Position numbers and translations under genes: made by a program
Notes under the pieces: model-generated
The model's database searches: none
Told to the model about the DNA's origin: nothing
The model's input: the letters and a program-made list of their open reading frames with translations, nothing else
Assembly: GCA_024720975.1 (NCBI GenBank)
Contig: JANJXX010000007.1
Coordinates: 448-58,117, forward strand
DNA from: Thermoproteota archaeon
GTDB lineage: Archaea; Asgardarchaeota; Njordarchaeia; Njordarchaeales; Panguiarchaeaceae
Direction: 5' to 3'
DNA: 57,670 nt
Shown here: in pieces, positions 2,170-26,088 of the stretch
How the letters are laid out: each line of letters begins with the position of its first letter
Numbering within the stretch: position 1 is the first letter of the stretch

Positions 2170-3279
2170 TTGACTAGCTACGCACTTGTACAATATACTT
2201 TCAAAGATTTAGGTATAATATTCGAGATCCCTTACTTACAACTTATAGTTTTAGAGGCCTTATGTAAGATCCCACCTGGAAAGGTTACTACTTACAAAGA
2301 TATCAGTACTGCATTAGGGGATGGCATTGCATCAAGAGCGGTTGGTTATATAATGAAGACTAATCCCCTCCCGGACAGATATCCATGCTACAAAGTCTTA
2401 GGTTCAGATGGTAGTCTCAAAGGATATAGCCTAGGCATAGAGAAAAAATTGAGCCTCCTCGAGATGGAGGGTATAGAAGTCAGACATCAGAGGATAACCA
2501 ACGTTGGAAAGTATCTAGTTGATCCTTCAGAACTTCAGATTCCACCAGTTCTGTCTTCTATGAAGGGGGTGCAAGAACTCTTAGCAAATAAGGTTTCCTT
2601 AACTACGGAGAGAAGAGATATACGTTTCGTCGTAACATTTGATTTATCATTCCTAGACGGTCCTCCAGACATAGGAATAGGGGTTGGATGTGCCTTCGAT
2701 CTCACTGACAAGAAACTACTAGGAGTAGGAATAAGCTTTGTGCCAACATTTATTCCTTATATACCAACATATCTAGCTTTCAGAGAACTTCCGGCGGTTC
2801 TTGTATGTCTATCTGCAATAAAGAAACACATTCCTAGAATTGATGCTCTAATCCTCGATGGTCAGGGAATACTTCACCCGAGGGGTTTTGGTATAGCGTC
2901 CCATGTGGGCGTACTAACGAACATACCTTCAATTGGAGTAGCGAAGAGTCTGCTAGTTGGAAAAATACTAGACACATGGATACACAAGGGTAAAATAAGG
3001 TATACGCCGATAATTCATGCAGACAAAATAGCAGGATTCCTTGTAGTTCAAGGTAGGAATAAAATCATAGTTTCTCCTGGTCACAAGTTCTCTCCAGAGG
3101 ATGCCTTAGAGTTTGTCACTAGACTCGATTGGCCGAACAACGAATCGGAACCACTTATAATCAGGCTCCCTCATAGGATAGCTTCGCGATTAAGAGACTA
3201 TGCTAGAAAATCTGCCGAACAATTCAAGAATGATGCAAAGAAACAGCGGTCTCTACAAGACTTTTTAATTAATGCATAA
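2170..3279 (+). CDS. O6-alkylguanine-DNA alkyltransferase / endonuclease V fusion
   Basis: N-terminal IPPGKVTTY..RAVG..NP..PCYKV (AGT). C-terminal PYIPTYLAFRE, DGQGILHPRGFGIASH, IGVAKS (EndoV). Confidence 0.88.
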   Translation: MTSYALVQYTFKDLGIIFEIPYLQLIVLEALCKIPPGKVTTYKDISTALGDGIASRAVGYIMKTNPLPDRYPCYKVLGSDGSLKGYSLGIEKKLSLLEMEGIEVRHQRITNVGKYLVDPSELQIPPVLSSMKGVQELLANKVSLTTERRDIRFVVTFDLSFLDGPPDIGIGVGCAFDLTDKKLLGVGISFVPTFIPYIPTYLAFRELPAVLVCLSAIKKHIPRIDALILDGQGILHPRGFGIASHVGVLTNIPSIGVAKSLLVGKILDTWIHKGKIRYTPIIHADKIAGFLVVQGRNKIIVSPGHKFSPEDALEFVTRLDWPNNESEPLIIRLPHRIASRLRDYARKSAEQFKNDAKKQRSLQDFLINA

Positions 3280-20723: not shown

Positions 20724-20809
20724 GGGCCGGTTGCCTAGAGGTTATGGCGTCCCGCTTACGAGGTTCCTGAGAAACGGGAAGGTCGGCGGTTCGAGTCCGC
20801 CCCGGCCCA
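20724..20809 (+). tRNA. tRNA-Val(TAC) with 13-nt intron at 37/38 (20761-20773)
   Basis: GGGCCGG/CCGGCCC acceptor. TCCCG-CTTACG[intron]A-CGGGA. Splice helix CTTA/TGAG. Confidence 0.93.
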
Positions 20810-25431: not shown

Positions 25432-25527
25432 GCCGGGGTTGCCGAGCGGTACGGCGTCGGCCTGCTAACCAAAAGGCTGATAGCCGATGGCGCTAGCGCC
25501 TCGCGGGTTCAAATCCCGCCCCCGGCA
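25432..25527 (+). tRNA. tRNA-Ser(GCT) with 14-nt intron at 37/38 (25468-25481)
   Basis: GCCGGGG/CCCCGGC acceptor, TCGGC-CTGCTA[intron]A-GCCGA, long variable arm GGCG-CTAG-CGCC. Confidence 0.93.
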
Positions 25528-25620: not shown

Positions 25621-25706
25621 GGGCCGGTAGCTCAGCCCGGTAGTCCTCATCCGAAAGCGTCCGGCTCTTAACCGGATGGTCGCGGGTTCAAATCCCGCCC
25701 GGCCCA
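25621..25706 (+). tRNA. tRNA-Lys(CTT) with non-canonical 12-nt D-arm intron (about 25644-25655)
   Basis: Anticodon arm TCCGG-CTCTTAA-CCGGA. Removing TCCTCATCCGAA restores the D-arm GCTCAGCCCGGTAGAGC. Confidence 0.9.
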
Positions 25707-25787: not shown

Positions 25788-25807
25788 CTCAGTCAAATTT
25801 CATTGTG

Positions 25808-25815
25808 TTTATATA
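25808..25815 (+). promoter_or_regulatory. Probable TATA box for the permuted 5S precursor
   Basis: TTTATATA about 50 nt before the processing stem. Confidence 0.6.
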
Positions 25816-25865
25816 CTCTGATAATTTAACAAGAGTTAGCTGTATAGCAGGCCAACGGCGCTAGA

Positions 25866-26031
25866 AAACTCGCATCGGGACCGAAAGCTAAGCCGCGCCA
25901 CGCCGACCTGAGTAGTGTGGGGGAGACCCCACGCGAAAGGGCGGTGCTGTCCGTTCCTAGAGGAGCGGACGGCCATAGGGCGCGGGAAACGCCCGATCCC
26001 ATTCCGAACTCGGAAATCTCGATGCGAGTTT
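25866..26031 (+). repeat. 15-bp inverted repeat (processing stem) with bulge-helix splice motif flanking the 5S gene
   Basis: AAACTCGCATCGGGA (25866-25880) pairs with TCTCGATGCGAGTTT (26017-26031): 14 Watson-Crick pairs and 1 G-U. Then a 3-nt AAA bulge and the 4-bp helix CCGA/TCGG. Confidence 0.9.
25887..26015 (+). rRNA. rrf: 5S rRNA, circularly permuted (3' portion 25887-25957, linker TAGA, 5' portion 25962-26015)
   Basis: 5' hallmarks GGCCATAG, GAAAC.CCCGATCCCATTCCGAACTCGGAA lie downstream of 3' hallmarks GCTAAGCC, AGTA, GGGAGACCC, GCGAAA, GTGCTG. Helix I and II pairings are intact. Confidence 0.93.
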
Positions 26032-26088
26032 GACTCCTTTAGAATTCTTTTTGAATTGTTACTGGTTGATCTATGTGACGGTAAAGAT

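Follow-up and report, generated by a model that had tools for sequence, protein, structure and literature searches.

A circularly permuted 5S ribosomal RNA gene in Asgard archaea with its native ends fused by a short cap, and its proposed maturation into a closed ring by tRNA-type splicing

In Thermoproteus tenax, the gene for the signal recognition particle (SRP) RNA is a noncoding RNA gene with a swapped order, and the new termini of its transcript lie in a bulge-helix-bulge (BHB) motif that is cut by the tRNA splicing endonuclease; RNA-seq reads run over the ligation junction and the resulting circle is the functional molecule (PMC4731332). Permuted tRNA genes like those of Cyanidioschyzon merolae and Thermofilum pendens also have the 3′ half first and undergo BHB-type processing with a circular stage, as far as the account citing them describes (PMC4267664). 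Ribosomal RNA (rRNA) is processed in a related manner in archaea, where BHB cleavage and ligation produce circular pre-16S and pre-23S rRNAs and circular 23S rRNA, and where the 23S circle may persist in ribosomes (PMC12918454). BHB cleavage and ligation likewise act on the permuted 23S rRNA of Pyrococcus and Thermococcus (PMC7758197; bioRxiv 10.64898/2026.03.23.713588). Among 5S rRNAs, the brown-algal mitochondrial molecule has its helix I closed into a hairpin and its ends at another place (Valach et al. 2014, PMC4267664), and in the E. coli 23S-cp5S a 4-nt connector links the native 5S ends and the 5S occupies its usual position in active ribosomes (Huang et al. 2020, PMC7283268). Here we describe a 5S rRNA gene, at 25887-26015 of a 57,670-nt stretch of DNA (the window) from a heat-loving archaeon that is deposited as Thermoproteota and placed by GTDB in the Asgardarchaeota (Njordarchaeia, Panguiarchaeaceae; assembly GCA_024720975.1, contig JANJXX010000007.1, positions 448 to 58,117), in which the two parts of the gene are permuted and the native ends are fused. 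All features of the gene described below are on the + strand.

We propose that the transcript of this gene is cut at a BHB motif and ligated by RtcB into a 129-nt ring with a capped helix I, and that this ring is the ribosomal 5S rRNA, a reading to which we would give a probability of roughly 60%.

A permuted 5S rRNA gene with a capped helix I

In this circularly permuted 5S rRNA gene, helix I is the hairpin at 25946-25973, where UAGA joins the native 3′ and 5′ ends. In the sequence itself, helix I has the 3′ strand GCTGTCCGTTCC (25946-25957), the cap TAGA (25958-25961) that links the native ends, and the 5′ strand GGAGCGGACGGC (25962-25973). Both strands are supported by the fold and by covariation as well. 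As a preliminary description of the locus had correctly stated, they form a 12-bp hairpin with two G-U pairs closed by TAGA; the pairs are contiguous, the G-U pairs are T25948-G25971 and T25954-G25965, and the loop is 4 nt. The isolated hairpin folds at -21.4 kcal/mol (z = -4.88), which 0 of 200 shuffles equalled.

At gathering thresholds, an Rfam scan of the window reported tRNAs only. In E-value mode, 25844-25955 matches through positions ~52-120 of the 5S model RF00001 (25.9 bits) and 25965-26070 matches through positions ~1-51 (24.9 bits). Because the gene order is permuted, both halves score below the RF00001 gathering threshold of 38 bits when taken in genomic order. The half-by-half matches place the 3′ part of the 5S upstream of the 5′ part, and therefore the native ends are fused. 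According to the RF00001 matches and the alignments, the 3′ part at 25887-25957 (Rfam ~52-120) has the loop-B 3′ strand, the helix II 3′ strand, helices V and IV with loop E, and the helix I 3′ strand, and the 5′ part at 25962-26015 (Rfam 1-51) has the helix I 5′ strand, loop A, the helix II 5′ strand, loop B, and helix III with loop C.

When the gene is rotated, with 25962-26015 placed ahead of 25887-25957, the sequence is colinear from end to end with the canonical 5S of sister families (10 genes, 50-63% identity). The uninterrupted CAGAAGUUAAG of these canonical genes is where the junction CGGAA|GCUAAG lands. After rotation, helices I-V and loops A-E are in their canonical order and register, and all helices are recovered with covariation. 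A second 5S match was not found in the rest of the genome (1.36 Mb in 29 contigs, 81% complete), leaving the permuted gene as the sole 5S-like locus.

Splice sites, RNA reads and the form of the mature RNA

The sequences around the permuted gene form a BHB motif, with two 3-nt bulges on opposite strands around a 4-bp helix and an outer helix flanking them. The outer helix pairs ACTCGCATCGGGA at 25868-25880 with TCTCGATGCGAGT at 26017-26029 over 13 bp with one G-U; it is present in the minimum free energy (MFE) fold and is supported by covariation. The central helix, based on the sequence and a forced fold, pairs CCGA at 25881-25884 with TCGG at 26010-26013. CCGA mimics the 5′ strand of 5S helix III and TCGG is the helix III 3′ strand in the mature fold. 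Since TCGG serves both helices, the splice-competent and mature folds compete. The whole-precursor fold has a z of -6.75, and the MFE of -93.4 kcal/mol compares with -89.9 kcal/mol for the BHB-forced fold, a gap of 3.5. The central helix of several relatives has G-A as its fourth pair.

Archaeal splicing endonucleases usually cut after the second base of each bulge. By this geometry, the predicted cut in the 5′ bulge AAG (25885-25887) leaves G25887 as the first excised base, and that in the 3′ bulge AAA (26014-26016) leaves A26015 as the last, for an excised RNA of 129 nt. When the ends of 25887-26015 are joined, the 5S is rebuilt at the base of helix III, where position 51 meets position 52. 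The preliminary description had placed the ligation of a 129-nt RNA at loop B; the length and the ligation stand, the exact site does not, as the join is at the helix III base, 2 nt 5′ of the loop-B 3′ strand.

Enzymes suited to these steps are encoded in the genome. A profile search found RtcB (PF01139, 562 bits) and two splicing-endonuclease paralogues (PF01974, 97.1 and 54.5 bits). Two such paralogues are the look of heteromeric enzymes, which accept relaxed BHB motifs. Judging from this gene content, the splicing endonuclease and RtcB are the putative enzymes acting on the 5S precursor.

RNA reads bear on these predictions directly. Four runs from the same study as the DNA source, including three hot-spring metatranscriptomes, were mapped on 25800-26080. 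In run X3, a metatranscriptome of which about 5% was read, 12 reads matched the locus, 6 of them first mates and 6 second mates; all are in one orientation, and 10 have an identity of at least 99%. Runs X2 and X4 had 0 reads and X1 had 1 read, and are no test of the locus. The first mates of the X3 reads are on the minus strand, which fits a + strand RNA in most stranded libraries. The reads are confined to 25885-26015 with a depth of 0 outside 25880-26019, indicating the leader and trailer are absent from the abundant species. Depth is 12 over 25930-25969, so that the UAGA cap is crossed by every read, with no differing letters reported. Three reads, with three different starts and up to 45 nt on the shorter side, have a back-splice joint from 26013 to 25885; given 2 ambiguous bases, this is the same as 26015 to 25887, a joint that "goes back 129" exactly at the predicted BHB cuts. 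Depth at the cap is as high as the number of all reads, so that the joint reads must span the cap too. For this reason, an origin of the joint reads in a canonical, unpermuted 5S of a related strain was considered and rejected.

Molecules that are ligated and have a closed cap exist in this metatranscriptome, and the X3 reads are, as far as we could find, the first direct evidence of the ligated junction together with the closed cap. The preliminary description had proposed a ring made by ligation, and had named RNA-seq reads over both the TAGA loop and the splice junction among the signs of it and dominant 5′ ends near 25962-25967 with 3′ ends near 25953-25957 as the sign of an opened loop. 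The former were found, and no ends piled up at the latter. More broadly, no pile-up of read starts or ends was reported in X3 at the reporting threshold of five among the 12 reads, and no skipped segment within the 5S was seen in them.

Under the scenario proposed here, the precursor would be transcribed from its own promoter and its leader and trailer would pair into the BHB motif. The splicing endonuclease would cut both 3-nt bulges, after A25886 and after A26015, and RtcB would join G25887 to A26015, restoring ...CUCGGAA-GCUAAGCC... at the base of helix III. The product would be a covalently closed 129-nt RNA folded as a normal 5S with a capped helix I. The cap would never be opened, serving as a permanent structural element so that the 5S has no free native ends, and the ring itself would enter the large ribosomal subunit. 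Both the synthetic E. coli 5S with joined ends and the circular SRP RNA of T. tenax are precedents for a ring being compatible with the ribosome. The ring would also be the main steady-state form of the RNA rather than a nicked or linear one.

Several observations weigh against this scenario. The 12 reads amount to ~6 fragments when mates are counted together, all are from one metatranscriptome, and just 3 show the joint. Read depth climbs sharply at 25885-25890 and falls gradually from ~25980 to 26015. A sharp 5′ edge with a graded 3′ edge is expected for a linear RNA with its 5′ end at G25887 in a random-primed library, although the same profile could equally come from clipped junction-crossing reads. 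The motif is of a relaxed type, with no evident inner helix h′ such as a strict hBHBh′ motif has. In addition, for the cultured archaea studied so far, the processing of 16S and 23S, "but not 5S rRNAs", is stated to proceed via circularization (PMC12918454).

The depth profile and the 3 joints in 12 reads are also what could be seen if the functional 5S were a linear permuted RNA, an alternative that we consider a serious one but clearly the less probable. The 129-nt RNA would then be unligated or re-nicked, with ends at positions 52 and 51 and helix I capped, and the circle would be minor or short-lived. A nick at the base of helix III leaves every helix intact, and the brown-algal mitochondrial 5S functions with relocated ends (PMC4267664). 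However, the archaeal BHB products that have been studied get ligated, be they tRNA exons and introns, pre-16S and pre-23S rRNAs, or the T. tenax SRP RNA (PMC4731332, PMC12918454), and RtcB is encoded in this genome. Nor do the reads pile up at their ends, at the threshold given above. With an average of ~100 mapped bases per fragment on a 129-nt circle, about half of the reads from a pure circle are estimated to show a detectable joint. The 3 of 12 found is therefore low, yet not clearly discordant with a ring.

An improbable variant is that the ring is an intermediate that is re-opened away from the cap to give a linear 5S with new ends, as happens in Pyrococcus furiosus, where the 23S rRNA is circularized and then opened by excision of helix 98 (PMC7758197). 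Twelve reads are too few to argue against a cut at another position. However, the Asgard 5S has no expendable segment, as all 129 nt align to conserved 5S positions, and the reads have neither start or end pile-ups nor a skipped segment.

More improbable still is an opening of the ring at the cap that would restore the ends of a canonical 5S. This is the maturation route of permuted tRNA genes, to the extent that it is related in the account that cites them (PMC4267664). Against it, no read ends at the cap that all 12 cross. A removable segment between the native ends, of the kind found in permuted tRNA genes, is not seen here, where the ends are 4 nt apart. Among 51 permuted 5S genes from relatives (see below), the cap is 3-5 nt in all 51, consistent with the statement of the preliminary description that there is no long spacer to remove. 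These genes have 41 distinct hairpins, 34 of which are closed by tetraloops (UUCG in 16, UACG in 4, and UGCG in 3). Altogether UNCG caps are found in 23 of the 41 hairpins and in 12 of 21 families, and GUAA and GUUA are present as well. The stems of helix I vary from 7 to 13 bp. The enrichment of extra-stable tetraloops together with the freely drifting stem length argues that the cap is kept in the working RNA as structure, and is not a spacer or a nuclease site. UAGA is not among the classic stable loops; the closest relative, at 93% identity, has UUCG where the window has UAGA.

The ring would plausibly remove the need for end trimming. A gain in thermostability, also offered as a rationale in the preliminary description, is not borne out. 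Capped permuted 5S genes of Lokiarchaeia-type genomes have a G+C of just 0.37-0.49, and the presence of the same layout in such low-G+C families indicates the cap and the permutation are not specific to thermophiles. Helix I length tracks the G+C of the RNA: Njord-type genes, at 0.64-0.72, have 9-13 bp, and Odin-, Loki-, and Heimdall-type genes, at 0.37-0.53, have 7-8 bp. By nearest-neighbour energies the circle folds at -63.0 kcal/mol, against -68.9 for its linear permuted counterpart and -67.6 when the 5S is canonical and open. The circle has no advantage at 37, 70 or 85 °C, though such energies are unsuited to judging exonuclease resistance or end fraying.

The gene also has features of an independent transcription unit, as suggested by a TATA-box-like TTTATATA at 25808-25815 and a run of five T at 26048-26052. 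The former is ~30 nt upstream of the likely transcription start and ~70 nt upstream of the 5′ splice site, and relatives have similar A/T boxes at a comparable distance. The latter is, by its sequence, a likely archaeal oligo-T terminator of the precursor. A scan for sigma-70 promoters and intrinsic terminators found nothing, these being bacterial-type models that are not applicable to archaea. Upstream on the same strand are two over-long tRNA genes, at 25432-25527 (96 nt) and 25621-25706 (86 nt), the second of which has 18 inserted nucleotides in the D-arm region when aligned to Rfam. Both are probably intron-containing and would need the same endonuclease. Another 86-nt tRNA gene, at 20724-20809 (Rfam tRNA, 54 bits), is called "tRNA-Stop, anticodon tta" by ARAGORN; an intron has probably shifted this call, and the gene is unlikely to encode a real suppressor tRNA.

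Distribution of the permuted gene in the Asgard phylum

The permuted layout is not peculiar to this genome. BLAST of relatives found it in 16 other genomes. In an 18-sequence alignment (A2), 92.3% of the cells of the permuted 5S and outer helix are paired, versus 37-49% with slid partners, and 38 of 50 pairs have changed on both sides. A covariance model of the permuted gene (R1) was then run over 151 genomes of the phylum, and full-length matches of ~50-174 bits were found in about 19 families (f1-f3, f5-f8, f10-f12, f15-f17, f19-f22, f25, and f27). A canonical 5S above the Rfam cut-off was found in 49 of the 151 genomes, almost all of them in other families, with 26 of 26 genomes in f9, 17 of 19 in f14, and others in f13, f18, f23, and f26. 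Across families the permuted and canonical states are nearly mutually exclusive. By their named records, the carriers of the permuted gene include Njordarchaeota (among them the genus of the window), Odinarchaeia, and many metagenome-assembled genomes (MAGs) of Promethearchaeota/Promethearchaeia (Lokiarchaeia).

Conservation of the structure was measured in 51 permuted 5S genes from ~20 Asgard families aligned to R1 (A3), with pairing counted over 48 distinct sequences. Helix I has 99.1% of its cells paired and 9 of its 10 pairs changed on both sides. All 11 modelled pairs of the outer BHB helix (25870-25880, of 13 in total) covary, with 93.2% of cells paired. For the full 5S structure, 94.2% of cells are paired versus 37-45% in slid controls. 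Given such compensatory changes across ~20 families, closed genomes among them, the expression and processing of the gene, and the near mutual exclusion with canonical 5S genes, it is hardly credible that the locus is a rearranged, non-functional pseudogene whose genuine 5S counterpart is in the unassembled 19% of this 81%-complete genome.

Two sequence patterns were run over the collection. The first was too loose and had only chance bacterial matches, and the refined one also had chance matches, to canonical 5S genes of bacteria and Bathyarchaeota, which were left out of account.

The alignments also contain a clean covariation between 25888 and 25991 of the window (5S positions 53 and 27). 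In A2 (columns 19 and 125) the pair is C-G in 12 sequences and U-A in 6, and in A3 it is U-A in 33, C-G in 12, and A-U in 2. The Rfam 5S consensus leaves position 27 unpaired, and there may be an extra pair here, 25888-25991, across the splice junction.

Some genomes have two permuted copies: G037:C1 (2238485-2238635 and 2590542-2590693), G079:C1, and G089. They include closed genomes of ~3.1-3.3 Mb from family f7. G110 has four partial permuted copies at contig ends, along with one match just over the canonical Rfam cut-off (38.4 bits). In four other genes an insertion of ~30 nt is present in loop C/helix III, bounded by CGAA...CCGG-like sequence: L211:31-209 (G102, f22), L215:31-210 (G031), L216:31-211 (G021), and L217:31-191 (G094, f24), with L215 and L216 belonging to the Loki-type family f12. 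The insertion may be a second, intron-like BHB element within the permuted gene. Outside the Asgard phylum, the canonical 5S of the Bathyarchaeota MAG MFD02248.bin.2.124 (L153, minus strand, ~3142-3261) seems to have an insertion of ~35 nt after ...CCCATTCCGAA and before ...CCGGAAACACGG, which may be a 5S intron.

Some carrier MAGs have the submitter labels Nitrososphaerota or Thermoproteota. For L150, L157, L161, and L165 (CAZWPQ01, CAZVPA01, CAZFGR01, and JAPDJY01, respectively), the 5S is identical to that of genomes (Njord-type or other Asgard) assigned by GTDB to the genus or the phylum of the window, and from this sequence identity their submitter labels look wrong.

Significance and comparison with known systems

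5S rRNA has been treated as a universal small linear RNA, and 5S processing in archaea described as circle-free (PMC12918454). A natural permuted 5S that needs tRNA-splicing enzymes and is apparently end-less would be a new mode of rRNA maturation. We hold it to be an even bet that most Asgard archaea (Njord-, Odin-, Heimdall-, Loki-, Atabeya-, and Freya-type) have no functional 5S in their ribosomes other than such a covalently closed, end-less ring. If that is true, the archaea most closely related to eukaryotes use their tRNA-splicing machinery to make a circular rRNA for the large subunit, and a canonical 5S, in the families that have one, is either ancestral or the outcome of a reversion. 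It also bears on how the 5S ribonucleoprotein is assembled without free termini in the lineage closest to eukaryotes.

There are practical consequences too. In closed Heimdallarchaeum genomes, 5S genes "could not be predicted" (PMC8813620). The permuted layout would explain why the 5S went unpredicted in closed Asgard genomes, as well as the failure of Asgard MAGs to pass as high-quality drafts on the 5S criterion. The covariance model R1 provides a practical route for annotating permuted 5S genes.

Compared with the systems introduced above, the Asgard 5S differs in what is permuted, what is kept, and how widely. The T. tenax RNA is an SRP RNA and not an rRNA, and its layout is known from a few Thermoproteus species, whereas the Asgard 5S layout spans most families of a phylum. 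The native ends of the Asgard 5S are, moreover, fused by a minimal 3-5-nt, mostly UNCG cap, and the ribosomal function of its ring is one that we infer. In permuted tRNA genes, so far as the citing account goes, the circle is an intermediate and the segment between the native ends is removed, while the Asgard 5S has no removable spacer. The archaeal 16S and 23S circles come from genes that are colinear with the mature RNA, and it is the native ends that are joined; in the Asgard 5S the gene itself is permuted and ligation rebuilds an internal helix. The final product of the brown-algal mitochondrial 5S gene is a linear, permuted RNA with an open three-way junction, made without splicing or ligation, whereas ligation restores the normal 5S topology in the Asgard RNA. 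The E. coli 23S-cp5S is synthetic, with its new ends tethered into the 23S rRNA, and has assembly defects; the Asgard 5S is natural, autonomous, and apparently end-less. A literature search found no report of a permuted or circular archaeal 5S, though most subscription journals were outside its coverage. The route from a permuted RNA gene to a circle made via a BHB motif is thus a known one, and what is new is its application to 5S rRNA across most of a phylum.
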